From positions 19,406,001 to 19,470,000 of the forward strand of contig NC_086108.1 of assembly GCF_963921235.1 (NCBI RefSeq): DNA of 64,000 nt, given 5' to 3'. This stretch comes from Mobula hypostoma (taxonomy: Eukaryota). The notes under the pieces are model-generated. The model was not told the DNA's origin and did not search any database. It saw nothing but the letters and a program-made list of their open reading frames with translations. Position numbers and translations under genes: made by a program. Each line of letters opens with the position of its first letter. Position 1 is the first letter of the stretch. Below, one piece after another: positions 19,600 through 56,682 of the stretch.

Positions 19600-22500
19600 A
19601 GAAAACTACATTTAATCTGATGGCAGCAGAGTTAATAGCAGTGCTCAATGGAAGCTGGATTCTACAGGCACCTGAACCAGCGAATGCGACCTGCGACCTG
19701 CCCCAAGTGACTCAGCCGAGGAAGCAGCTAACTTGGGCGGCATAAGAGAAAGCAGAAACTCGGCAAGGGAGCTGGGGTGCTAGTCAGGCTGAGAGCTAAC
19801 CCAGCCAGACTGGCAGTACCATGACTTTTCCTGGCCAATGTCCGCTCGCTGGATAATAGATTGGACCCACTGATACTGAAAATTTACACGCAGAAAGATG
19901 TAAAACTGCTGTTTTCTGGTTTTCACTGAAATATGGTTAACTAACAATATGTCCCAACTCGATGTTTCAACCTGACGGGATGACTCCCTATTGGGGGAAT
20001 CGAAGGAGGTAGAATCTGTGTATACATTAACCAAGACTGGTGCACAATCTCACTGTGACAGTTAGCAGTCACTGTACTGGGGAAAGAGAGCATCTTCCAA
20101 TTAAGTGCCAATAAAATTATCTGCCCAGGGAGTTTACTGTTGTGTACATCCTCACAAATTCCAGTGCCAAGGTCGCTCTGGGAGAGCTTTACAGTATCAT
20201 CGCTCTCCACAAAACAAACATCAGGACAGTCTCTCCATTATTGCAGGAGACTTCAATCAGGGTAACATTTGACCCATGGTCACCAGGGGAACAAAAAGAC
20301 TCGACCATGTCTGTACAAACAGATGTGATACTTACAAAGCCATCCCCTGCCCTCATCTTGGCCTCTGATCACATCTCCATGATGTTAATCCCAGCATACA
20401 GACTGATGCTGAAAATGCAGAAACTAGTCAAGAGAACCATCACTGTATGGCCGAACAAGGCAATCTCTATGTTTTAGGACTGGCAGATGTTCAAGGAGGC
20501 CATCACAAGCAGAGGAACCTTGAGAAATATGCCTCATCTGTCATCGGCTACATTAGTAAATGTGCAGATGACATTGGTACTAGAAGCCCTGGCTGAACGT
20601 AGAGATGTGCTCCCTACTAAAAGCTGCCTTCAAGTCCAGTGACAGAACAGTTCTCAGAGCACCCTGGAGAAGCCTCATCTCAGGCATCAAGCGGGCAAAG
20701 ACTGCCTACGCATGAAAAATTCAGGAATGCCAATCTGCTAACGATCCACAGTATGCATGGTTGGGCATCAAGGGCATTCATGAATATGCAAGCGAAAACA
20801 GTGCTGACTAGCAGTGATGCCTCCCTCCATGATGCTCTAAACAATTTTATGCACGCTTCTAGGTGGCATGCAACTCAACACCAGCCACGAAAGCTTCTAC
20901 CTCGAACAGCAATAGATGTGAGAAAGACTTAGCGATCTTGTCGTGAGAGGCCCCTTGGGTAAGAGTGACCATAATATGGTGGAATTCTTCATTAACATGG
21001 AGAGTGACGTAGTTAATTCAGAAACAAAGGTTCTGAACTTAAAGAGGGGTAACTTTGAAGGTATGAGACGTGAATTAGCTAAGATAGACTGGCAAATGAC
21101 ACTTCAAGGATTGACGGTGGATATGCAATGGCAGGCATTTAAAGGTTGCATGGATGAACTACAACAATTGTTCATCCCAGTTTGGCAAAAGAATAAATCA
21201 AGGAAGGTAGTGCACCCATGGCTGACAAGAGAAATTAGGGATAGTATCAATTCCAAAGAAGTAGCATACAAATTAGCCAGAGAAAGTGGCTCACCTGAGG
21301 ACTGGGAGAAATTCAGAGTTCAGCAGAGGAGGACAAAGGGCTTAATTAGGAAGGGGAAAAAAGATTATGAGAGAAAACTGGCAGAGAACATAAAAACGGA
21401 CTGTAAAAGCTTTTATAGATATGTAAAAAGGAAAAGACTGATAAAGACAAATGTAGGTCCCCTGCAAACAGAAACAGGTGAATTGATTATGGGGAGCAAG
21501 GACATGGCAGACCAATTGAATAATTACTTTGGTTCTGTCTTCACTAAGGAGGACATAAATAATCTTCCAGAAATAGTAAGGGACAGAGGGTCCAGTGAGA
21601 TGGAGGAACTGAGCGAAATACATGTTAGTAGGGAAGTGGTGTTAGGTAAATTGAAGGGATTGAAGGCAGATAAATCCCCAGGGCCAGATGGTCTGCATCC
21701 CAGAGTGCTTAAGGAAGTGGCCCAAGAAATAGTGGACGCATTAGTGATAATTTTTCAAAACTCGTTAGATTCTGGACTAGTTCCTGAGGATTGGAGGGTG
21801 GCTAATGTAACCCCACTTTTTAAAAAAGGAGGGAGAGAGAAACCGGGGAATTATAGGCCGGTTAGCCTAACGTCGGTGGTGGGGAAACTGCTGGAGCCAG
21901 TTATCAAAGATGTGATAACAGCACATTTGGAAAGCGGTGAAATGATCGGACAAAGTCAGCATGGATTTGTGAAAGGAAAATCATGTCTGACGAATCTCAT
22001 AGAATTTTTTGAGTTGTAACTAGTAGAGTGGATAGGGGAGAACCAGTGGATGTGGTATATTTGGATTTTCAAAAGGCTTTTGACAAGGTCCCACACAGGA
22101 GATTAGTGTGCAAACTTAAAGCACACGGTATTGGGGGTAAGGTATTGGTGTGGGTGGAGAATTGGTTAGCAGACAGGAAGCAAAGAGTGGGAATAAACGG
22201 GACCTTTTCAGAATGGCAGGCGGTGACTAGTGGGGTACCGCAAGGCTCAGTGCTGGGACCCCAGTTGTTTACAATATATATTAATGACTTGGATGAGGGA
22301 ATTAAATGCAGCATCTCCAAGTTTGCGGATGACACAAAGCTGGGTGGCAGTGTTAGCAGTGAGGAGGATGCTAAGAGGATGCAGGGTGACTTGGATAGGT
22401 TGGGTGAGTGGGCAAACTCATGGCAGATGCAATTTAATGTGGATAAATGTGAAGTTATCCACTTTGGTGGCAAAAATAGGAAAACAGATTATTATCTGAA

Positions 22501-24730
22501 TGGTGGCCGATTAGGAAAAGGAGAGGTGCAACGAGACCTGGGTGTCATTATACACCAGTCATTGAAAGTGGGCATGCAGGTACAGCAGGCGGTGAAAAAG
22601 GCGAACGGTATGCTGGCATTTATAGCGAGAGGATTCGAGTACAGGAGCAGGGAGGTACTACTGCAGTTGTACAAGGCCTTGGTGAGACCACACCTGGAGT
22701 ATTGTGTGCAGTTTTGGTCCCCTAATCTGAGGAAAGACATCTTTGCCATAGAGGGAGTACAAAGAAGGTTCACCAGATTGATTCCTGGGATGGCAGGTCT
22801 TTCATAAGAAGAAAGACTGGATGAACTGGGCTTGTACTCGTTGGAATTTAGAAGATTAAGGGGGGATCTGATTGAAACGTATAAGATCCTAAAGGGATTG
22901 GACAGGCTAGATGCGGGAAGATTGTTCCCGATGTTGGGGAGGTCCAGAACGAGGGGTCACAGTTTGAGGATAGAGGGGAAGCCTTTTAGGACCGAGATTA
23001 GGAAAAACTTCTTCACACAGAGAGTGGTGAATCTGTGGAATTCTCTGCCACAGCAAACTGTTGAGGCCAGTTCATTAGCTATGTTTAAAAGGAAGTTAGA
23101 TATGACCCTTGTGGCTACAGGGGTCAGGGGGTATGGAGGGAAGGCTGGGTTCTGAGTTGGATGATCAGCCATGATCATAATAAATGGCGGTGCAGGCTCG
23201 AAGGGCCGAATGGCCTATTCCTGCACCTATTTTCTATGTTTCTATGAGTCAACCCTGCACCCCCACCCCCCAATGCTGCCAAGCCAGGCTGAGTACTCAC
23301 AGTGTGCAGACCAGCTCAATGACATCTTCAACACATCGTTCATCCAGGCTGCAGTCCCCACGTGCTTCAAATCAGCCACCATAACCATGGTACCAACAAA
23401 CTCTACACCTTCAGAACTAAAAGACTACCACCCAGTGGCAATGACGCTAATTATCATGAAGTGCTTTGAATGGCTCATGATGGCAAAACATCAAAAACCC
23501 CATTCCTGCCACACTGGTCACTCACCAACATGGTTACCAACAGAACCACTCTACAACCGATGCCTTGGTAACTATTATGCACTTGGCTCTGACACACCTG
23601 GAAAACGAAGACATTTATATGTCAGAATGGGTTTCAGTTCAGCATTCAACACTATTGTCCCACAGACCCTGGTGAACAAACACCTACTCTCGGCCTAAAT
23701 ACATCACTGTGCAATTGGATGGTGGATTTGCAAACGAACAGGCCTCACACAGTCAGGATGCACAACTGCTCCGCCCCATCATCCTCAACACAGGTGCACC
23801 CGAGGGCCATATGCTGAGCCCATTGCTGTACACTATTCACACGCGACTGCACAGCCAAACACTCGAGGGATCACGTGTGAAGTTCAGCGATGACACAGCA
23901 GTGGTGGGGCTCATCAACAACAATACTGAGAGGAGGACAATCTCGAGGTCTGGTAGCAGACAAATAACCTCTTCCTCAATATCAACAAGACAAAGGAGAT
24001 AGCTGTCGACCTGGAGAACTCACGCCCTGCTTTACATCTGCAGCACAGCATTGGAAACTCCATTCTTGGGAGTGCACAACCCACACAAACATCCATGGTC
24101 CCAGAACACATCCTACACGGTCCAGAAAGCTCACCAATGCTTCTTTCTGAGGCTGAATAACGCTGGACTATGCACATCAAAGCTCACGTCAGATGTGCAG
24201 TTGAGCACATCCAAACATGCTGCATCACTGCTTGTGATGGAAACTGCACTGTGGCAGACAGGAAAGCTCTTCAAGGGGCAGTCAAAACTGGGCAATTCGT
24301 TACTGGCACCAGCCTACCAGCCATCAAGGACACGTATACAGAAAGGTGACTGAAAAGGCCAGGAACGATATGAAGGATCCCATATAGCCTGCTCAGGGAT
24401 TATTTGTCCCACTTCCATCAGGGAGACAGTAACCATACATCCACAGCAGGACCACCTGACTCAAACTGTTACTTTGCCCAAGGAATAAGGCTGATCAACA
24501 TGTCCACCACTAAACTCCACACTACTTTATTAGCTCCCATCAGTCACCTTATGTAGATACAGCCTAGCATCACTTCATGGACATACAATCAATCTATATA
24601 AGCTATCTGATGTATTTATAGTTTTTTTTATTATTACTGTTGTGTTCTTTTTATTTTTTTTTAAATGCTGGAGTAGCATTATTTCACTCTCCTTACACTT
24701 GTGTAGAGGAAATTACAGTAAACAATTTTG
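19600..24730 (+). mobile_element. Degraded Rex1/Babar-type LINE interrupted by a younger CR1
   Basis: EN remnants before 20930. After 23246: CADQLNDIFNTS..VPTCFKSATI..DYHPVAMT..MKCFEWL, FSSAFNTI, LNTGAPEG, KFSDDT. Confidence 0.8.
20931..23246 (+). mobile_element. 5'-truncated CR1 (HER1-like) LINE, ORF2 pseudogene
   Basis: ORFs 20943-22019, 22028-22807 and 22832-23155 join into one CR1 ORF2 (KSPGPDG, NYRPVSLTS, YLDFQKAFDKVPH, GVPQGSVLGP, FADDTK). It is broken by a frameshift near 22015 and a TAA at 22805. Tail (tttctatg)n. Confidence 0.95.
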
Positions 24731-25526: not shown

Positions 25527-26618
25527 CACAAACAACAGGAATTCTGCAAATGCTGGAAATTCAAGCAACACACATCAAAGTTGCTGGTGAACGCAGCAGG
25601 CCAGGCAGCATCTGTAGGAAGAGGCGCAGTCGACGTTTCAGGCCGAGACCCTTCGTCAGGACTAACTGAAGGAAGAGTGAGTAAGGGATTTGAAAGTTGG
25701 AGGGGGAGGGGGAGATGCAAAATGATAGGAGAAGACAGGAGGGGGAGGGATAGAGCCGAGAGCTGGACAGGTAATAGGCAAAAGGGTTACGAGAGGATCA
25801 TGGGACAGGAGGTCCGGGAAGTAAGACGGGGGGGGGGGAACCCAGAGGATGGGCAAGGGGTATATTCAGAAGGACAGAGGAAGAAAAAGGAGAGTGAGAG
25901 AAAGAATGTGTGCATAAAAAAAAGTAACAGATGGGGGAAGAGGGGGAGGTGGGGCCTCAGCGGAAGTTAGAGAAGTCGATGTTCATGCCATCAGGTTGGA
26001 GACTACCCAGACAGAATATAAGGTGTTGTTCCTCCAACCTGAGTGTGGCTTCATCTTTACAGTAGAGGAGGCCGTGGACAGACATGTCAGAACAGGAATG
26101 GGACGTGGAATTAAAATGTGTGGCCACTGGGAGATCCTGCTTTCTCTGGCGGACAGAGCGTAGATGTTCAGCAAAGCAGTCTCCCAGTCTGCGTCAGGTC
26201 TCGCCAATATATAAAAGCCACATCAGGAGCACCGGACGCAGTATATCACCCCAGCCGACTCACAGGTGAAGTGTTGCCTCACCTGGAAGGACTGTTTGGG
26301 GCCCTGAATGGTGGTAAGGGAGGAAGTGTAAGGGCATGTGTAGCACTTGTTCCGCTTACATGGATAAGTGCCAGGAGGGAGATCAGTGGGGAGGGACGGG
26401 GGGGGGACGAATGGACAAGGGAGTTGCGTAGGGAGCGATCCCTGTGGAATGCAGGGGGGGGGGAGGGAAAGATGTGCTTAGTGGTGGGATTCCATTGGAG
26501 GTGGCGGAAGTTACGGAGAATAATATGTTGGACCCGGAGGCTGGTGGGGTGGCAGGTGAGGACCAGAGGAACCCTATTCCTCGTGGGGTGGTGGGAGGAT
26601 GGAGTGAGAGCAGATGTA
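25527..26618 (-). mobile_element. Penelope-like element 3' fragment with terminal repeat
   Basis: NRVPLVLTCHP...HIILRNFRHLQ...AFHRDRSLRNSLVHS and GIY-YIG-region remnants. The terminus at 25527-25670 is the source sequence of the fold-back elements. Confidence 0.9.
25628..25663 (-). ncRNA. Minimal type I hammerhead ribozyme (PLE-associated), intact core
   Basis: Minus strand AGTC-CTGACGA-AGG gtctcgg CCT-GAAACGTC^GACT: stem I AGTC/GACT, core CUGACGA and GAAA, stem II AGG/CCT, palindromic ACGT stem III, GUC cleavage triplet. Confidence 0.8.
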
Positions 26619-34910: not shown

Positions 34911-37879
34911 AACAGAGAAACAGCATCTGAGCACTGCTTTCATTTGGAATCGAGGACAGTCTTTCCAGTGTTTCTCTTTTATTGCAACACATGAAAAACC
35001 AGTAATTATATTTATGTCACGTCAGCAGAAATGTAATCATAGTTGTACATTATTTCACCATCACTGTTTCCTCTAAAGCTGCTTGGATGCGCAGTAACTG
35101 AAATGCTCCTGCGCACATTGCCTTTGTTGCCAGGCAGCTGGAATTGAACACAGTTAGAAATAGTTCAAGAAACATGAAAGATTTTCTTTGTTGTACTGTC
35201 TTTCATTATACCCTTCAATTAATAAAAAGTATGCAATTTTTCAATTTTCTTTCCAAACAGTCATAGTATGCATATTACAAAACAAAACCACATTCAAAGT
35301 AGCATGCAATTTCAGGCCATGTAAAAATTTCATGCTCAGAGCAATGGTATTCTGTTGCAGAAACACACTACTTTCTCAATTTAATGTACAAATTCAACTT
35401 GAGCGTACTTGTTCATATAGTAAATTCATAATTCAGGGCAAAGTGCTTCAATTGCCGAACAAATACAAAGAAGCCAACGAATTATACCAGGGTGCTTTTA
35501 AATTCAATTTTGTATGAATGCACCCCACAAGCACTGGTATTTGCTGGCCTTGATCTATCAGAACCAAGGTTTGTGGAGGTTTATACTGGCAGAAAAATGA
35601 TTGGATTTGGTCCCACCGACAACTAACGAAGAAAGGACACTATTGTTCAGCAAAGCCCTTTCACAGATGTCACCAGCTGGGTCAAAAAACAGTGCAATAA
35701 AGCAGTGAAATATAATATCAAGTATTAAGGATCATCACTGGTAACAGAAAATGTAACAAGATACAGAATCACTGAAGTAGTAACAGGGGTTGTTATGATA
35801 CACTGAACAATTTTGTTATACAAACAGTGTAAAATCATTCATACACAGTGATGGTCAACAGGGTGCTCATTTAATTACAAAGACATTAAATTTTGTTGCT
35901 CAAGTCTCTCCCCGTTTATTACCTACATCTTTCCCAACTGCTATACACCTCCTTTCTCTTACTTTGTGTATGCATATTAATCCTTCACTTACAACTTCAA
36001 TGTATTTGCTTCAACCATTCTGTGTGACATGTTCTACATTCTGACTCGGAGTAAAAAATAGTATTAATGTTTCATTCTGGTTTATCATACTATCCTCTAT
36101 TTATGCACACTTGACAGGACTCAAAAGTGGACATCCTCCCAGAACAACCTCTTCACTTTGTACACCTTTATCTGAGTCTATCCTTCATTCAACCAACAAC
36201 AATGGAAAGTCGTGCAGGAGTGCCAAACCCAATCCAGGTTAAATAACAGCATGCTCCATGAGCATAGTGAAATAGCATTTAGTCAGTCATAACCTGCAAC
36301 AGCCAGGACACTGCAGCCCTAGAGTTCATTCAAAGAACATTTATTATCAAAGTATGTATGCAGTATACAACCCTGAGATTCTACTTAGCTGTGACAGTCA
36401 CGAAACAAAGAAAACCCTGGAACTTTTCCAAAGAAAAACATCAAACCCCACCTCCCCACGGGCCAAGAAAAAAATCCAAATCATGTAAACAGCAAAAAAA
36501 AACAAGATGCACAACATAAAACACAAAAATGAGAGTCCACAATATTCAGTTCAATCTAGCGCAGTGTTATTTGCAGAGCGCCCCAATTCAAATCGTCCAA
36601 AATACAACAAAAAAAAGGAGCAACCAGGAAGCAGAAACACATCGTAACATGAATTACAGAGTCCAGTCCACAAATTGTGTCGATTAAACATTGCCCAAGA
36701 CTCCAGCACAACCAAGTGAGAGGGAGAAAGAAAAACCATTCAAACCAGAGCCCCTCATCCAGGAGCACTGAACATGGCAGACAGAGAGACCGTCATATGC
36801 AGATACCTTCCTCTGGCAACAGCAAGCAAGAGGCTGGTAGATGGTGCTTTACACCCACTTCCCTTCTGCTCACTCCTCGATGATTTCAATCCTACTCAGT
36901 GCTTTAATCGGTAAGATATGCAGTTGATCATGGGCTTGTGCCCCATCTCCAGGCTTATGAGCCCCAAGCGCACACATGTTGCCTGAAACCTCATGGAACC
37001 CTCCAAGAGAGCAAAGCACCAGATCACTCACTCAGTCCGAAAACACACCACCAAAATGTAGATTACAGGTTCTAACAGTAGCAGAAACACATTTGAAAGA
37101 AAAAATGTAAAAAAAAGTGAAAGTAGTAGTTTCGTGAACCATCTGGAGGATGTCACGTTGTTGTCTGGGCCATGCATGTAAACAAGATACACAAGAACAT
37201 TGGTTCAAACTTGAACCCCAGAAAAACTCAAGGCAGGATAAAGTGACACAACGTCTACATATGACAGTTATTCAGCGAATCGACTTTGAGCCCCTCTCAT
37301 ATCCATAAACTCTAGTGCAGAGAAGTTCCAAGAGTAAGTGACATGGAAGCATCAGGACATGCATGTTTTGGTCTAGGGGTTCCCAACCTGGGGTTCACAG
37401 ACCCCTCAGTTAATGGTAGGGGCCCCATGGCATTGGGACCACTGTTCTAGTCCAAGGTTACACAATTATCCTGAATTGAATACATTCCATAATTGTCACT
37501 AGGTTTAAATCATATCCCTTTAGGTATTGCCTTGAACAGGACAACTATCATAGTTTAAGTCAGTGCCTTGCAAGAGCAAAATGGAATGAATGATAAGTGA
37601 CAGCAATTATAACAGAAAACTAAGAATATCTCAACACGAACAGCTCATTGCTGTTCCAGTATTTGTGGACACTTTGCTACACACCAAGTTAAATGAATAG
37701 AAACCAGCTGCACGATTTTACATGATTATTCTTCAAATCTAGAACGGCACCACAAGCGAGTGATGCAAATTCTTGAAATAAGCTGTATTGCATCTCTAAG
37801 CAGAATTTTAAACATTAGATGCACGCAGACATACATATGGCACAAGTTAGCCACAAGTGTCAGGCTGGAAGGTGGGCAC

Positions 37880-40593
37880 TGAAGCACCTTCAATTACTCC
37901 AAAAGACTGAGGTTTGATAAGATACTGAAAGGCTTTTATTCGCTGTACAATACGACCTCCACAGTGAGTGTCTGCCCCCAGACTGAGGGGGAGGGGCAAG
38001 GCGAACACCTTTATACAGGATTCTGTGGGAGGAGCCACAGGGGCAGTCAACAGAGGAGTGTGTCCAGACAGGTAACTGAGTTACAACATATATACATGGT
38101 TTACCACATGCACTCCTCCTTTTTTTAAAAAGAGTCCTGCGGGGTGAAGTGACTGACAATATTTAAAATAAGTACATTTACAGGTTAAGTCTATCAGGCG
38201 GTCGAGTCCGTCGCTGTGATCTACGTAGCACTGGTGGTGATTGCACTGGTGATGGCGGTTGTGCTGGCTCCGGCCTGACATCAGGTGCCAGCACGTTAGG
38301 CATCGATAATCCCTCGTGTGTGTGCGTCGCGCCCGGTATGGGAGTGTCGTGTGGTGTCTGTATAGGGTTTGGGGTGCACGGTGTCTCGTAGGTACATACA
38401 TTGGTGGGTACGGGGTCAATAGTCACCACAGAGTGTTCAGGGTAGGGGCCTGGAGCTCCTGCGGGCGCCAGGTCGCGGATGGAGACCGTGTCCTCCCGCC
38501 CATCAGGTAAAACCACGTAGGCATACTGGGGGTTCACATGAAGTAAGTGAACCCTCTCGACTATCGGGGAGTATTTATTGCTCCTCGCATGTTTCCGGAG
38601 CAGCACTGGCCCCAGGGACATCAGCCAAGATGGTAGGGTAGAGGGTACGCGTCGAGCTGCGTGAACCTATTGATGATCTGGCTATAGTCCACGACCATCC
38701 TATTCTTCTCCCCGTTCCGAACAACCACCACCTGCGCCCTCCAAGGACTTGTGCTTGCCTCAATGACCCCCTCCCTGAGCAGCCGCTGCACCTCCGACTT
38801 AATGAAAGCTCTGTCCCCCGCGCTGTACCTCCTGCTTTTAGTTGCCACAGGTTTACAGTCGGGGGTCAGGTTGGCGAACAGCGGTGGGGGAGGGATCCTG
38901 AGGGTGGAGAGGCCGCAAGTGGTGTCGGTAGTGTAGCAGTTGGCATGATGTTGGGTGGGATGCGTGGGTCGGTGTGTGTATGTGGTCAGTAGCGGGGTAC
39001 GTGACATATCTCTACAAAACAGGATTTATGACAGTAATTGGCGGGAGGGGCCCATCATACTCCATTGTCACGCTTTTCAGGTGGCTCTGGAAGTCCAACC
39101 CCAACAGCACAGGGGCACACAGTTGAGGCAAGACCAGTAACGTAAAGTCCCGATATTCTGTGCCCTGCACCACTAGTGTCGCTACACAACTCCCCCGGAT
39201 GTCTGCTGTATGCGACCTGGAGGCCATGGTGACCCTCCGATTTACCGGCCGTATCATGAGTCCACAATGCTACACCGTGGCCGGGTGGATAAAACTCTCC
39301 GTGCTGCCTGTGTCAAACAGGCAGCTTGTCCTGCGCCCCTCCACCAGGATGTCCATCATTGATCTTGCGAGCTGGTGGGGAGCGCTTTGGTCGAGGGTCA
39401 CGGAAGCCAGGGTGGGGTCGCTGTCTTGGTCCGGCGTGGTGGGGTGCCCCGTGAGCACCCGTTGGTCGTAGGCGGTGGGAGGTGGCGCCGACCAAGATGG
39501 CCGCCCCATGTCTCGCACGTGGTGGTGGCGTGCAGGGAAGATGGCGGCAGGTAAGATGGCGACCCCCACGTCTCGCACACGGCGCTGCTCGATCCCGCTC
39601 GCGGTTTTGACTTACAGACCTTGGCGAAGTAGCCCTTCTTTCCGCAGCTGGAACAGGTAGCTTGTCGGGCCACGCAGCGTTTCCAGGGGTGCTTCTCCAG
39701 TCCGCAGAAGTAGCACTTCACGGACTCACGACTGGCTGCAGCCGAGGCCGATTCGCCGGCGGGTTGCGGGGTCTGCGGCGCTCACGAGGCCATCGGGGGA
39801 TCGTGTGCCTGGAGAGCCTCGGAGTTATGCAGAGCAGCCTCCAACGTATCAGCCAGCTCCATCGCCGAACTTAGGGTAAGATCGGCTTTTTCCAGCAGCT
39901 GCTGGCGCACGTACACTGACCCGGTCCCCGTGACGAAGGCGTCTCTCACTAGGAATTCTGCATGCTGCGCCGCCGTCAGCTCCTGGCAATTGCAGGCTCG
40001 CACGAGTGTCTGTAGGGCCCGGACAAACTCAGCACTCGATTCCCCGAGGCGTTGTTGCCGTGTCGCTAAACGGTGCTGAGCATAGACGCTGTTTATCGGC
40101 CGCAGGTATTGTCTTTTGAGTGCGTTCATTGCGCCGTCGTAGTTCGGCTGGTCTCTGATCAGTGAATAAACCCGTGGACTGACCCTGGAGAGTAGAACTC
40201 TGCGCTTCACTACGGGGTCGGTCGCTTTAATCTCCTCTGGATACGCTTCGAAGCAGGCCAGCCAGAGTTCGAAAGCGTTTCCAGCGTCAGGCATTTGCGG
40301 ATCAGGTCTAATTTTTCTGATCTCAGGGCCTGTTCCATGTTTTAAAACGTACATCGAATAAAATTGAAGCACCTTCAATTACTCCAAAAGACTGAGGTTT
40401 GGTAAGATACTGAAAGGCTTTTATTCGCTGTACAATACGACCTCCACAGTGAGTGTCTGCCCCCGGACTGAGGGGGAGGGGCAAGGCGAACACCTTTATA
40501 CAGGACTCTGTGGGAGGAGCCACAGGGGCAGTCAGCAGAGGGGTGTGTCCAGACAGGTAACCCAGTTACAACAGATATACATGGCTTACCACA
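37880..40593 (-). mobile_element. Internally deleted Ty3/Gypsy LTR retrotransposon
   Basis: 229-bp LTRs at 37880-38108 and 40365-40593 (TG...CA), 5-bp TSD GGCAC, and PPT aaaaaaaggaggag next to the 3' LTR. Contains gag with a CCHC knuckle (CYFCGLEKHPWKRC), protease (LFDTGS), RT N-terminus (SPWRAQVVVV..RMVVDY..DAYPLP) and an integrase C-terminal remnant. Confidence 0.95.
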
Positions 40594-41313
40594 GGCACAT
40601 CACTGGAGTTCTCCACCAGTCACCCAACCACCCCATCTCAGATGAAGTCACATGCATTGGTATTGGTCTTCTCCAGCACTTCAGACTCCACCGAGATTGT
40701 TAAGCTCACCACTGATTTGTGACATTACTGAGAAAGAGAGACTGTCCCAGTGAGGGCCTCGAGCAGTATGAAAAGGGCAAGGGGGAAGGATGCCATGCAG
40801 TGACTACACTGGAGAACAGGATCCAAAATAGATTCATGTGCTATCTAAAGTTCTTGTTCCAAAGATAGGTAAATCAGGAACGTTATTTAAAAAGCCTTTT
40901 GCTTTCTGTTTGCATGGCATGTCAAAATGAATAACGTGAAAGTGAAGTCACGTAGAATAGTACAAGGAAACAAATTCAACACATAATTGAGCCTGAGATT
41001 TTCCTCCTTTAGTCAATGGTGAAACAATTGTTCTCAATGCATGGAAAAGTACATGTATGGTATTGCAACGAGAACAGCAAACTACTTGATTCAATTATGA
41101 CGCTGGATGGCAAAACTAACCATTTGCTGACAGCAGTACTTTGGCATTTTGCTCCAGTAGTTTCAGCAGATGCTAGTGGGGAGCAGGAAGCAGGAAGCTG
41201 AAGTGCAAGTTGGAAGGTGAGGAGATGACAAGTAAAGTGCATAAAGTGTCATGGTCCAGTCCGTGGACTCCGGACTCCAGGTCTTCCGGCTGTCTCTTGT
41301 TTCTGAGGTGTTA

Positions 41314-47605: not shown

Positions 47606-50475
47606 GAGCATTGTAAGAAAGGTAGATGAACTCAGAGCATGGATTGATACCTGGAAATATGACGTTGTAGCTATTAGTGAAACGTGGTTGCAGGAGGGGT
47701 GTGATTGGCAACTAAATATTCCAGGATCTCGTTGCTTCAGCTGTGATAGAATAGGAGGGGCAAGAGGGGGAAGTGTTGCATTGCTTGACAGAGAAAATAT
47801 ACCAGCAGTCCTCTGGCAGGGTAGATTAGTGAACTCATCCAGGGAGGCTATTTGAGTGGAATTGAGGAATAGGAAAGGTGTTGTGACGCTTATAGGGGTG
47901 TATTATAGACCACCTAATGGGGACCGTGAACCAGAGGAGCAAATTTGTAAGGAGATAGCAGATATTTGTAGTAAGCACAAGGTTGTGATTGTGGGAGATT
48001 TTAATTTTCCACACTTTAATAGACTGGGAAGCCCATTCTGTTAAAGGGCTGGATGGTTTGGAGTTTGTCAAATATGTGCAAGATAGTTTTTTGCAGCAAT
48101 ACATAGAGGTACCAACTAGAGAAGAGGCAGTGTTGGATCTCCTGTTAGGGAATGAGATAGGTCAGGTGACGGAGGTTTGCGTTGGGGAGCACTTCGGGTC
48201 CAGTGATCACAATGCTATTAGTTTCAATATAATTATGGAGAAGGAAAGGACTGGACCCAGGGTTGAGATTTTTGATTGGAGAAAGGCTAACTTTGAGGAG
48301 ATGCGAAAGGATTTAGAAGGAGTGGATTGGGACAATTTGTTTTTATGGGAAGGATGTAATAGAGAAATGGAGGTCATTTAAAGGTGAAATTTTGAGGGTA
48401 CAGGATCTTTATGTTCCTGTTAGGTTGAAAGGAAAAGTTAAAAGTTTGAGAGAGCCATGGTTTTCAAGGGATATAGGAAACTTAGTTGGGAAAAAGAGAG
48501 GGATTTACAATAAATATAGGCAGCTTGGAGTTAATGAGGTGCTCGAGGAATATAAAGAATGTAAAAAGAATCTTAAGAAAGAAATTAGAAAAGCTAAAAA
48601 AAGATATGAGGCAGCTTTAGCAGGTAAGGTGAAAATAAATCCAAAGGGTTTCTACAGCGATATAAATAGCAAAAGGATAGTGAGGAATAAAATTGGTCCC
48701 TTAGAGAATCAGAGTGGACTGTTATGTGCGGAGCCAAAAGAGATGGGGGAGATTTTGAACAATTTCTTTTCTTCGATATTCACTAAGGAGAAAGATATTG
48801 AATTGTGCAAGGTAAAGGAAATAAGAAGGGTAGTTATGGAAAGTATGACGATCAAAGAAGAGGAAGTACTGGCACTTTTAAGGAATATAAAAGTGGATAA
48901 GTCTCCGGGTCCGGACAATATATTCCCTCGGACCTACAGGGAAGTTAGTGTGGAAATAGCAGGGGCTCTGACAGAAAGATTTCAAATGTCATTAGAAACG
49001 GGGATGGTGCCAGAGGATTGGCATATTGCTCATGTGGTTCCACTGTTTAAAAAGGGTTCTAAGAGTAAACCTAGCAATTATCGGCCTGTGAGTTTGATGT
49101 CAGTGGTGGGTAAATTGATGGAAGGTATTCTTAGAGATGGTATATATAATTATCTGGATAGACAAGGTCTGATTAGGAACAGTCAACATGGATTTGTGCG
49201 TAGAAGGTCATGTTTGACAAATCTTATTGAATTTTTTGATGAGGTTATTAGGAAGGTTGATGAGGGTAAAGCGGTGGATGTTGTCTATATGGACTTCAGT
49301 AAAGCCTTTGACAAGGTTCCACATGGAAGGTTAGTTAGGAAGGTTCAATCGTTACACATTAATATCGAAGTAGTAAAATGGATTCAGCAGTGGCTGGATG
49401 GGAGACGCCAGAGAGTAGTGGTGGATAACAGTGTGTCAGATTGGAGGACGGTGTGTAGCGGTGTGCCTCAGGGATCTGTACTGGGTCCAATGTTGTTTGT
49501 CATATATATTAATGATCTGGATGGTGGGGTGGTAAATTGGATTAGTAAGTATGCAGATGATACTAAGATAGGTGGAGTTATGGATAATGAAGGAGGTTTT
49601 CAAAGCTTGCAGAGAGATTTAGGCCAGTTAGAAGAGTGGGCTGAAAGATGGCAGATGGAGTTTAATGCTGATAAATATGAGGTGCTACATTTTGGTAGGA
49701 CTAATCAAAATAGGACATACATAGTAAATGGTAGGGCATTGAAGAATGAAATAGAACAGAGGGATCTAGGAATAATGGTGCATAGTTCCCTGAAGGTGGA
49801 ATCTCATGTGGATAGGGTGGTGAAGAAAGCTTTTGGTATGCTGGCCTTGATAAATCAGAGCATTGAGTATAGGAGTTGGGATGTAATGATGAAATTGTAC
49901 AAGGCATTGGTAAGGCCAAATTTGGAGTATTGTGTACAGTTGTGGTCAGGGAATTATAGGAAAGATGTCGATAAAACTGAGAGAGTACAGAGGAGGTTTA
50001 CTAAAATGTTGCCTGGGGTTCATCTCCTAAGTTACAGAGAAAGATTGAACAAGTTAGGTCTTTATTCTTTGGAGCGTAGAAGGTTGAGAGGGGACTTGAT
50101 ACAGGTATTTAAAATTATGAGGGGGATTGATAGAGTTGACGTGGATAGGCTTTTTCCATTGAGAGTGGGGGAGATTCAAACAAGAGGACATGAGTTGAGA
50201 GTTAAAGGACAAACATTTAGGGGTAACATGAGGGGGAACTTCTTTACTCAGGGAGTGGTAGTTGTGTGGAACGAGCTTCCAGCAGAAGCGGTTGAGGCAG
50301 GTTCGATGTTGTCGTTTAAAGTTAAATTGGACAGATATATGGACAGGAAAGGAATGGAGGGTTATGGACTGAGTGCAGGTCGGTGGGACTAGGTGAAAGT
50401 AGGAGTTCGGCACGGACTGGAAGGGCCGAGATGGCCTGTTTCCGTGCTGCAATTGTTATATGGTTATATGGTTAT
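47606..50475 (+). mobile_element. CR1 LINE ORF2 (EN with lesions plus a 666-aa open RT region at 48392-50392)
   Basis: AISETW, GDFN, SDHN, KSPGPD, QHGF, DFSKAFDKVPH, GVPQGSVLGP and YADDTK motifs; (ttatatgg)n tail; 5-bp TSD AAGAG. Confidence 0.95.
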
Positions 50476-51982: not shown

Positions 51983-53745
51983 CTTTAGATTAGATTCAAC
52001 TTTATTGCCATTGTGCCGAGTACAGATACAAAGCCAATGAAATGCAGTTAGCATCTCACCAGAAATGCAAAGAGTATTATTTACAAAATAAGTGTGAATA
52101 AAAGGTAAGTGCTACAGCACACAAATATAAAAGTACTGAGACAGTACAATATGGGTGCAGTATTACTTAGCGCTGTGATGTGAGGTTCAGCAGGGTCACA
52201 GCCTCAGGGAAGCTCTTCCTGTGCCTACTGGTGCGGGAGCGGAGGCCCCTGTAGCGCCTACCCCATGGGAGAAAAGTAAAAAGTCCATGGTTCGGGTGAG
52301 ATGCATCCTTGATTGGTTTTTCACTCAGGATGGACGGCCCAGTCCTTTTTTTGCCCTGTTTAGAATAGTAGTGTTTTTTTTTCTTTTTTTTTAAATATAT
52401 AAAAATTTCTAATACTCCTTGCTTTCTTCATAAATCGATAAGAGAAGAATGAATTACACTCTTTTTTTTCCTCTGTATTATACATTCTATATTATATTTA
52501 TGCTTTGTAGATGAACACTGTGTGATTCTGATATTGTTTATTTTACCTTCTGTATGTACTGTTACTGACATATATACCAGAGATATTCTCCTCTGGTTTG
52601 TATACACTTTTTTTAAAAATCAATAAAAAGATTGAAAAAAGAAAGAGAAATATCCTTGATAATGCTTTTCGCCCTGCCAAGGCAGCGTTTATGGTAGATG
52701 TTCTCAATGGTGGGCAATTGGGTGCCGATAATCCACTGGGCAGTTTTCACGACACACTGGAGTGCTTTGCAGTCCAATACGGGACAATTGCCATACCACA
52801 CTGAGATGCAGTTGGTGAGTCGGCTCTGAATGGTACAGTAGAAGAAGTCCGTCAGTATCCTGGGACAGAGGTGAGCTTTCTTGATACTCCGCAGGAAATA
52901 AAGGCGCTGTTGTGCCTTTTTGATCAGGATGGAGGAGTTCAGGGACTAGGTGAGATCCTCGGAAATGTGGACACCAAGGAATTTGAAGCTTGATACACGC
53001 TCCACCACAGCTCCATTGATATAGATGGGGACGTGAGCGTGGCTCCTAGCATGCCAGAAGTCCACAATAATCTCCTTGGTCTTCTGGGTGTTAAGGGCCA
53101 GGTTGTTGTCGGCATACCACGCGGCCAGGTGCTGGACCTCATCCCTGTAGGCCATCTCGTCATCCCCTCTGATCAGGACAAACACCGTAGTGTCGTCTGT
53201 GAACTTGATTATGGAGTTAGAACCATGTACAGGAATGCAGTCATAGGTGAAAAGGAATTACAGAAGAGGACTCAGCACACAGCCTTGAGGCATGCTGGTG
53301 TTCAGGGTGAGAGTGGAGGAGGACAGGATGTCTAATTTAACTGATTGGGGTCTGTTAGTCAGAAAGTCCAAGGTCCAATTGCAGAGGGATGAGCTGATAC
53401 CAAGCTGGCAAAGTTTGGCTATCAGCTTGAAGGGGATCACAGTATTGATTGCCGAACTAAAGTCAATGAACAGCATTCTGATGTAAGAGTTGGGACTGTC
53501 CAGGTGGGTCAGGGCAGAGTGAAGTGTCGTGGAGATGGCGTCCTCTGTTGACCTGTTGGTGCGAAAGGCAAATTGATGGGGGTCCAGGGTAGTGGGCAGA
53601 CAGGGTTTCAGATGTGATAGAACCAGTCTCTCAAAGCACTTTGCAATGATGGGGGTGAGTGCAACTGAGCGGGAGTCATTCAGGCCCGTGGCAGTGGAAT
53701 GCTTTGGCACTGGCATGATGGTGGCGATCTTGAAGCTCTCCCGTT
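51983..53745 (-). mobile_element. Rex1/Babar-type LINE RT and 3' fragment nested in CR1
   Basis: [52 protein letters not shown] and NTQKTKEIIVDF motifs. Confidence 0.9.
52314..52651 (+). mobile_element. Short L1-like 3' end insertion
   Basis: AATAAA followed by an A-rich tail; 9-bp TSD atccttgat (52305-52313, 52652-52660). Confidence 0.75.
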
Positions 53746-56682
53746 GAGAGATCTGACACCTGACCAGGTTCATTTCACAATACCAAATCAAGTACAGCTT
53801 CTCCTCTTGTAGGCTTATGGACACATTGTGTCAAGAAACCTTCCTGAACACACCTAACAAACTCCACCCCATCTAAACTCCTCGCTCTTGGGAGATGCCA
53901 ATTGATATTTCCGAAATTAAAATCTCCCATGATAACTCTGTTATTATTACACTTTTCCAGGATCTGTTTCCCTATCTGCTCCTCGATATCCCTGTTACTA
54001 TTGGGCGGCCTGTAAAAAACACCCAGTAAAGTTATTGGCCCCTTCCTGTTCCTCACCTCCACCCACAGAGACTCCATAGACAATCCCACCATGACATCCA
54101 CCTTTTCTGCAGCCTTGACACTATCTCTGATCAACAGTGCCACACCCCCACTTCTTTTGCCTCCCTCCCTGTCCTTTCTGAAACATCTAAAACCCGGCAC
54201 TTGAAGTAACCATTCCTGTCCCTGAGCCATCCAAGTCTCTGTAATGGCCACTACATCCTATCTCCAAGTACTGATCCACGCTCTAAGCTCATCCGCTTTG
54301 TTCACAACACTCCTTGCATTAAAATAGACACATCTCAAACCTTCAGTCTGAGCACATCCCTTCTCTATCACCTGCCTATCCTCCCTCTTGCACTGTCTAC
54401 AAGCTTTCTCTATTTGGGAGCCAACCTCCTCTTCCCCAGTCTCTTCAGTTCAGTTCCCACCTCCCAACAATTCTAGTTTAAACTCTCCCCAGTAGCCTTA
54501 GTAACCTCCCCAGCAGGATATTGGTCCCCCTGGGATTCAAGTGCAACCCGTCCTTTTTGTACAGGTCACACCTGCCCCAAAAGAGGTCCCAATGATCCAG
54601 AATCTGAATCCCTGCCCCCGCTCCAATCCCTCAGCCACGCATTTATCCTCCACCTCATTCTATTCCTATACTCACTGTCACGTGACACAGGCAGTAATCC
54701 CAAGATTACTACCTTTGCAGTCCTGCCTCTCAACTTCCTTCCGAACTCCCTGTAGTCTTTTTTCAGGACCTCTTCCCTCTTCCTACTTACGTCATTGGTA
54801 CAAATATGTACCACGATCTCTGGTTGTTCTCCCTCCCACTGCAGGAGCGATCCAAAACATCCCGGACCCTGTCACCTGGGAGGCAAACTACCATCCGAGT
54901 TTCTTTCTTGCATCTACAGAATCGTCCGTCTGACCCCCTAACTATAGAGTCCCCTATCACTACTGCCTTCCTCTTCCCTTCTCTACCCTTCTGAGCTACA
55001 GGGCCAGACTCTGTGCCAGAGGCACGGCCACTGCCGCTTTCCCCAGGTAGGCTGTTTTCCCCAACGGTACTCAAACAGGAGTACTTATTGTCAAAGGGGT
55101 ACAGCCACAGGGGTACTCTCTCGTACCTGACTCTTTCCCTTCCCCCTCCTGACTGTGACCCACCTGTCTGTGTCTCGTGGCCCTGGTGTGACCACCTGCC
55201 TATAACTCCTCTCTGTCACCTCCTCACTTTCCCTGACCAGGCGAAGGTCATCGAGCTGCATCTCCAGTTTCCTAACTCGGTCCCTCAGGAGCTGCAGCTC
55301 GACACACCTGGTGCAGATATGGCCGTCTGGGAGGGTGGGAGACTCCAGGACCCCCCACATCTGACACTGAGCACAGAAAACTGGCCTCACACTCATACTA
55401 CCTCCTTTCGGCAATTAACACAGTTCAACCTACCTCACCTCGTCCCATTACCGCCCAAGCCTGTTGAGCCAAAGCCCTACCACTCTGCCACCTCTCACTC
55501 CGCTGCCCGCTCCGACGCTGCCTGCTGGATATGGCGGTCTTCTTTTTAAACCTTTCACACGCTACAGGCTGATGTCATGCGCCTGCGCAGTCTCGCCTCT
55601 TTTACCCCCTGTAGTAAAAAACTCCCTTCACTCCGAAGAACATCAGCTGTTCACTCACAGCCTTCTTGCTCCAAATCAAAAACTGGTAAAGATTCCTTGC
55701 CTTTTTAAACCTTTTGCACACTACTGGCTGACGTCACGCGCCTGCACAGTCTCGTCTCTGTTTTACACGAGTAGCAAAAAACTCTCTTCGCTCCAAAAAA
55801 TCAGCTGTTCACTCGCAGCCTTCTTCTTCCGATTGTATGCAGAAAAAGGCCCATGATATCACAGGCTTGATTGCCAGGTTTAAAAGTTGCTTGAAGCTAG
55901 AAAGCATACTATAATCATTTTACAAGTTCTACTGTTCCAGACAATAGCAAAAAAAAAAATCAGAAATATAATGCAGTTAATTATTGAGCAACACTCCGGG
56001 TTTCCACATGGAAGCTGTAACATAGCCAAATTGCATGCAGAAAACTTCTAAAGAAACGAGTGGAAATGCCAAAATACAATTCTAAAAGCAAATATTCAAA
56101 CAAAGTGACTGGCATTATTCTCAAACAAAAAATAAACAAATTTCTTAGAAGTTTGCAACATATGAGCTCTTGGCTTCCAATGTTTGCATTGTTAGCCAAA
56201 GCTTATATACAATCAAATTAATTTTCTTAATAACTCTAAAGAGTTGCCACAAAAATCTTTTTTTAAGGCACCAGTCTTAACTTTCTCGTGTGCAATAGGC
56301 CGTAACAGAGTAGCAGTGATCTGTATAATGTGATCTGTTATCATGACCAGCTGTCCAAACTTCACAATACTTCACGATTAGACAATGTTAAATTTATTCA
56401 ATCAAAATACAATAAGCTTGATTAATACAAACTGAGACACTCACAAGGACTTCCTAGGAATAGTACAATAAACATTTTTTAGATGAAGCTTCAATGATCA
56501 GTAAATTTATCAACATACTCTGTTAAAACAGATTAAAATAAAAGTTGCTTCTAAAAATACTCCATATTATTAAAACTTATTTTGCTGAGTAATTTTGAAC
56601 TGATATTTCAGTGCTGCTTCAAGAAATACCATTATTAAAAGTTATCTTTTTCCAGGATTCTCGTACTCAACTTCTCTTGATA

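Follow-up and report, generated by a model that had tools for sequence, protein, structure and literature searches.

In the literature examined, as far as its available text extends, self-priming among Ty3/Gypsy retrotransposons is tied to the Tf1/sushi chromoviruses. The first 11 bases of Tf1 pair with its PBS (primer-binding site), RNase H cutting the RNA between bases 11 and 12 (PMC7175516, available text), priming taking place within a three-duplex 'pretzel' structure (bioRxiv 2022.12.06.519325, available text). Self-priming has also been predicted, from complementarity between PBS and LTR, for the Tcn1 clade of mosses and fungi and for the Ty1/copia elements TAR, Houba and Osr-1 (PMC6317226, available text), TAR showing that the trait can arise outside chromoviruses. 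Skipper of dictyostelids and GalEa of fungi are LTR elements that lack a TGG primer site, and their accessible descriptions give Skipper a polypyrimidine stretch to which nothing in its LTR is complementary and GalEa a conserved hairpin inside its internal domain.

The lineage described here is represented by one copy in the window, which is the whole 64-kb stretch of Mobula hypostoma DNA that was analysed. It resembles Tf1 and Tf2 (Schizosaccharomyces pombe), Tj1, Tosmo1-3, Tcry1 and the Tf1/sushi group in its Ty3/Gypsy gene order and lack of a tRNA site, and shares with that group a PBS by the 5' LTR that is complementary to a segment of the LTR, with a core of about 11. As in Tf1, a flanking stem is predicted to open just past the primer segment, the lineage having support for a central duplex and one flanking stem (compare the available text of bioRxiv 2022.12.06.519325). 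It differs from the Tf1/sushi chromoviruses in lacking a chromodomain (28/28 relatives), in its leader of only about 16-45 nt before gag, in its pairing of often 13-18 nt, in a primer segment that ends in a poly(A) hexamer in 19 of 25 families, and in a reverse transcriptase (RT) motif YxDN in 60 of 84 relatives (from 120 of 882 proteins); its gag has two zinc knuckles, whereas chromoviruses usually have one (PMC2577118, available text). As with Tcn1 and TAR, its self-priming is predicted from PBS-LTR complementarity; unlike Tcn1, a chromovirus, and TAR, a copia element, both plant or fungal, it is an animal Ty3/Gypsy lineage without a chromodomain, and unlike Skipper and GalEa it has the partner of its PBS in the LTR.

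Anatomy of the Mobula element

The window copy is a 2.7-kb, internally deleted Ty3/Gypsy element on the minus strand, with the TG...CA LTRs, target-site duplication (TSD) and polypurine tract by which such elements are recognized. The order gag-protease-RT-RNase H-integrase is retained on either side of a deletion near 38636, which takes out the RT core, RNase H and the integrase core (about residues 483-1056 of the relative P0029); without these the copy could only be mobile in trans. Its features are as follows.

40594..40598, minus strand: target-site duplication GTGCC, left copy (5 bp)
40365..40593, minus strand: 5' LTR, 229 bp, TG...CA, with loose contig ends at both borders
40495..40500, minus strand: TATAAA, variable within the family, a candidate promoter word only
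40466..40471, minus strand: TCAGTC, initiator-like, about 30 nt past TATAAA, a rival start site
40419..40433, minus strand: LTR partner and putative self-primer, strict core about 40419-40429
40420-40425, minus strand: AATAAA within the LTR partner; putative cut after 40419
40368..40418, minus strand: predicted second stem (about 40418-40409 with 40379-40368), opening at the first base past the partner
40349..40363, minus strand: PBS-position arm, the complement of the LTR partner, starting one base (40364) past the LTR
39400..40338, minus strand: gag, ATG at 40338-40336, frame broken by frameshifts and stops
39015..39400, minus strand: aspartyl protease, with stops in frame (PF13975, E 3.3e-4, under the curated cut-off)
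38637..38950, minus strand: reverse transcriptase, N-terminal part, ending at the deletion junction near 38636
38178..38636, minus strand: integrase C-terminal part and Pro-rich tail, no chromodomain
38109..38126, minus strand: polypurine tract, preceding the 3' LTR
37880..38108, minus strand: 3' LTR, 229 bp, differing from the 5' LTR at 9/229 positions
37875..37879, minus strand: target-site duplication GTGCC, right copy (5 bp)

The gag ATG lies just 26 nt past the LTR, and two zinc-knuckle arrays are found in gag near 39720-39620. A tandem 5-base repeat, CTACC, sits at the deletion junction (38632-38641), and the configuration suggests that a microhomology jump made the deletion. Elsewhere in the window are remnants of LINE-type reverse transcriptase and endonuclease (20922-22807, 48317-50392 and 53258-54257) and dispersed short repeats (at 25566, 42357 and 45739); ARAGORN found no tRNA gene in the window.

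As the original prediction had described, the 5' LTR ends GCTTCA at 40365 and is followed not by TGG but by a single A (40364) and then the 15-mer 40363-40349; the second LTR and the GTGCC TSD establish this end independently, and the LTR borders at 40365 and 40593 are likewise marked by contigs that end loosely with mixed flanks. At 14/15 positions the 15-mer is the complement of 40433-40419, a segment that ends AATAAAA and includes the AATAAA already pointed out there, and the one mismatch sits at 40354. The geometry is antiparallel and primer-like, the 3' end of the partner pairing with the base nearest the LTR. Against 3000 dinucleotide-shuffled LTRs the best match of the 15-mer was at most 12/15 (12 being reached in 4/3000), and no other 15-mer of the internal region has more than 12 matches to the LTR. 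Past the 3' LTR come the TSD and host DNA, so the earlier statement that the pairing arm is absent there also stands. The 140-nt leader has a folding z-score of -1.79, with 13 of 200 shuffles folding as well; because this is unremarkable, it is position and covariation that carry the argument, and folding energy does not. For PBS positions 1-2 of the window copy, competition from U5 is predicted, their pair probabilities being 0.14 and 0.56. A perfect 10-base palindrome, GTTTTAAAAC, lies between the PBS and the gag ATG (40339-40348); its candidacy as a dimer site was dropped, as three of four sequencing runs show a variable first base (58-100% of depth) and it is absent from the leaders of relatives.

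The state of the ray family was read from contigs of four runs of four studies, with four organism labels, one of which may be the source of the window. By depth, the pairing base at 40354 accounts for 53401/53437, 182797/182907, 153/153 and 11.4/11.4 in the four runs; the mismatch is private to the window copy and the family state is a perfect duplex, which reaches position 16 in 58-100% of depth in three of the four. Depth over the LTR is several times that over the PBS and the flanks are mixed at both LTR ends, which indicates a multi-copy family with many LTRs. For LTR variants at 40429 and 40433 (6-13% of depth, three runs) there is no matching PBS change among the variants listed (40 of 52), and for a PBS variant at 40353 the partner change is absent among the variants listed. 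The TATAAA to which the original prediction drew attention is present but is not a lineage feature, being altered in 19-59% of depth across the four runs, with no TATA-like word found at a fixed distance in relatives. A subfamily (19-59% of depth) has TATAAA changed to an AATAAA-containing word (40495-40506) that resembles a second poly(A)/primer word. The initiator-like TCAGTC occurs again at 40395; the initiator motif TCAKTY is named in the available text of PMC3601003.

Relatives and covariation of the pairing

The closest proteins among the matches listed (120 of 882) are from Mobula (97-98% identity), then Hypanus, Scyliorhinus and Narcine, and named matches at 64-70% among those listed come from soft coral, trematode, crustaceans and insects. 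All four Pfam domains, and the RNase H domain, are present in 28/28 full-length relatives, the gene order being read on P0029, and the best PDB match is Ty3 Gag-Pol (E 1.3e-108). No chromodomain was found in the 28 (23 Pfam families matched at E up to 0.05), which extends to the lineage an absence first remarked on in the window copy, where it could not have been shown from that copy alone because its integrase is mostly deleted. Two CCHC arrays are among the invariant columns of the 28 relatives' gag. The RT catalytic motif is YxDN instead of YxDD in 60 of the 84 relatives that cover it (proteins P0001-P0120, 120 of 882) and in 9/9 close relatives checked, ray and shark among them; a literature search on YLDN and reverse transcriptase found nothing relevant. 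A scan of IMG/VR gave 44 pattern matches, with no relative among them.

A metagenome scan confirmed 506 stretches, of which the best 80 were retained; 59 loci reaching gag, minus three missing the gag start and one with <70 nt upstream, plus the window copy, gave a final set of 56 leaders, which fall into 29 families when grouped at 80% DNA identity. Because many loci share one assembly, counting is by family and not by copy. For 13 copies, from three families, the pair of LTRs and a 5-bp TSD show independently where the LTR ends. Two loci, L023 and L053, have the same 3' flank and different 5' flanks, L053 being without a TSD, which suggests recombination or misassembly.

An 11-mer read one base past the CA pairs perfectly with its own LTR in 36/56 leaders and at 10/11 or better in 49/56; the same test shifted to begin with the base directly following the CA is perfect in only 4/56, so the duplex begins sharply one base past CA. 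When the junction was chosen by a rule blind to pairing, an own-LTR match of at least 11/12 was found in 22/27 family representatives vs 9/702 cross-family pairs; 27 of the 29 families entered, two having no junction motif, and the rule chose an earlier CA in L026, L054 and L069, all three counted as misses. Seven of the 56 leaders fall under 10/11, including L035, which has no fold-back in 92 nt, and L055, which is cut by the contig start; among further exceptions L067 is weak, L042 is a decayed copy and L069 fits at another CA with one mismatch.

The 25 families with a clear duplex leave out L035, L055, L067 and L069 and include L008 and L063, chosen over mismatched or shortened siblings, so that this set leans to pairing. 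Within it positions 1-9 pair in 25/25 families, with up to four pair types per position, and positions 10-13 in 21-23; of the outer positions, 12 pairs in 23, 13 in 22, 14 in 19, 15 in 18 and 16 in 14, with background beyond. There are 23 different PBS 11-mers among the 25 families, and none of the 25 has a TGG-led PBS at 0-3 nt past the 5' LTR. CA..TGG matches occur in 4/56 leaders, three being ATG codons and one, without assignment, being in the truncated L055.

Six sister pairs were taken from a protease-RT tree with a weak backbone and no outgroup; three are starred, and the other three, with bootstrap values of 92-99, either have a weaker second support value or sit within a starred trio. 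Between sisters all 12 changes at positions 1-9 are compensatory, and at positions 10-13 three are compensatory and five broken. Thus the two checks on relatives that the original prediction had proposed came out in its favour: no normal TGG site was found at the position, and complementarity is conserved with changed letters. In L024 one change is present in both LTRs together with the matching PBS change, unlike its siblings, as expected if the PBS were re-copied from a retained primer; retention of the self-primer is reportedly a feature of Tf1. In L010 a position-2 change occurs in both LTRs with the PBS unchanged, and L006 is likewise.

On the LTR side, the base at -11 is A in 17/25 families and that at -10 is G in 19/25, and the bases just past the partner are purine-C-C in most of the 25. 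The predicted second stem opens right past the partner in 21/25 families, whereas 40 shuffles gave it in 6.8 on average and never in more than 12. The partner is carried by both LTRs, and its 5' copy lies 31-87 nt from the PBS across families. The leader of L050 (about 100 nt before gag) holds the PBS arm twice, one copy falling within the LTR-leader region and the other preceding gag. Three contigs that begin at the partner (L012, L026 and L075) were rejected as start-site evidence, because nearby polymorphism between LTR copies explains such breaks.

Candidate primers and other roles of the duplex

The best reading of the PBS-position arm is self-priming through the element's own LTR segment, which we consider fairly probable, and the lineage likely starts copying with a piece of its own RNA. 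The 15 bases past the 5' LTR would act as a self-primer binding site onto which the 5' part of the RNA would fold back; an intact family member would probably supply the RNase H that cuts the RNA at the 3' end of the partner, and the freed 3' end would prime minus-strand DNA synthesis into U5 with no tRNA. A working primer of about 11 nt, the length known from Tf1, is most probable, and the RNA would then start at -11 (40429 in the window copy) or a few bases ahead of it; alternatively, the start may lie further upstream (40469), giving a longer 5' piece. In most families the last six bases of the primer would also serve as the poly(A) signal, which would be exposed in the 3' LTR. At the general distance of cleavage from a poly(A) signal, roughly 10-30 nt of R past the cut would be left for strand transfer.

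A Tf1-like model, with the RNA's 5' end as self-primer, appears to be matched by the strict core of 9-11 pairs, by the biased bases at -11 (and -10), by the fixed register and by the predicted stem past the putative cut site. Pairing out to 15-16 is left unexplained by a start at -11, and the TATA/initiator pair of the window copy points to a start at 40469, which does not fit that model neatly. Folding, cutting and priming are all deduced from DNA, so that the self-priming reading of the original prediction gains support from conserved, covarying complementarity while the priming itself stays inferential.

Two further accounts of the duplex seem unlikely to us, and to a similar degree. According to one, the duplex hides the 5' poly(A) signal, or serves packaging or translation control, and something else primes. 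The original prediction had added such masking to self-priming, and for the window copy it is borne out by prediction, the unpaired probability of the hexamer being 0-0.01 in the 5' context and 0.36-0.99 in the 3' context; AATAAA or ATTAAA also ends the partner in 19/25 families. As the sole reason for the pairing it fails, since the duplex is kept with neither hexamer in 6/25 families, and masking is therefore not the whole story: in L029 the end of the partner is changed on both sides of the duplex, and in L003 a separate AATAAA 26 nt downstream is left uncovered, outside the duplex. Masking has no need for a start exactly one base past CA, and another primer site is absent. It may be a side benefit in the window copy.

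The second account takes the primer from the 3' LTR copy of the partner, on the same or a second RNA, cut past the hexamer, with the RNA circularised or paired in trans. Both LTRs carry the partner, and if the start is at -11, bases -12 to -16 lie only in the 3' LTR part of the RNA, which would explain the pairing beyond position 11. A start a few bases upstream of -11 accounts for the long pairing equally well, however, and the 5' copy, at a distance of only 31-87 nt, is predicted with high probability to pair with the PBS; precedent for a 3'-LTR primer was not found in the available text of the literature examined.

Priming by a host tRNA, tRNA fragment or other host RNA, with the LTR match incidental, is less probable still. 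Half-tRNA primers do exist in Ty1/copia lineages (PMC6317226, available text), and for the ray family taken singly an internal tRNA fragment may yet match the PBS, but a host primer fails to explain 23 different 11-mers that each track their own LTR, and TGG is absent in 25/25 families. Nor is there an Rfam match in 40250-40650 at E up to 5, a weak test for 15 nt, and three short PBS strings are absent from the tRNA PBS 12-mer supplements of PMC13524379, as far as available, likewise a weak test. A chance inverted repeat or assembly artefact, for which the z-score of just -1.79 and the inflation of matches by conserved AT-rich first six bases might speak, can be virtually discounted in view of the shuffle and cross-family controls and of the recurrence of the duplex in four runs of four studies and in many assemblies.

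Affinities and significance of the lineage

Two zinc knuckles liken the lineage to Mag, by description and without a reference sequence; since the accessible descriptions of Micropia/Mdg3 also have two CCHC arrays, these are not diagnostic of Mag. No clade name for the lineage came from the literature, the searched supplements of PMC6238403 and PMC8556966, or the Atlas, within their available content. A Mag-like or Cigr-1 home is a pair of leads only, by description. The Cigr-1 clade presumably fits in having one ORF of around 1200 aa, LTRs that are short and hardly any leader.

Self-priming through the LTR is thus the best reading of a pairing that is real; the Tf1-like mechanism is known, and what differs is its predicted setting in a chromodomain-less animal Gypsy lineage. 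No report of self-priming in a non-chromovirus animal Gypsy clade was found in the available text, although subscription papers or Repbase and GyDB entries may hold one. It is possible, if doubtful, that a large Gypsy lineage of animals, with no kinship to the Tf1/sushi chromoviruses, came to self-priming independently, with an RT whose catalytic motif is mostly YxDN. Its primer would then not be the capped 5' end but an internal or 3'-LTR segment that also serves as poly(A) signal and is cut where two stacked helices meet.

The leader of about 80-100 nt holds primer, poly(A) signal, stem, PBS and start codon, and this compactness makes the mechanism easy to test in vitro and explains why annotation that relies on the PBS misses these elements. 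If the reading is true, silencing by tRNA fragments at the PBS would not touch such elements. The trait would then have arisen again, or be older than thought, in a lineage traced through protein homology to rays, sharks, soft coral, trematode, crustaceans and insects, and its origin would bear on whether tRNA priming came late, as proposed in the available text of PMC3601003.
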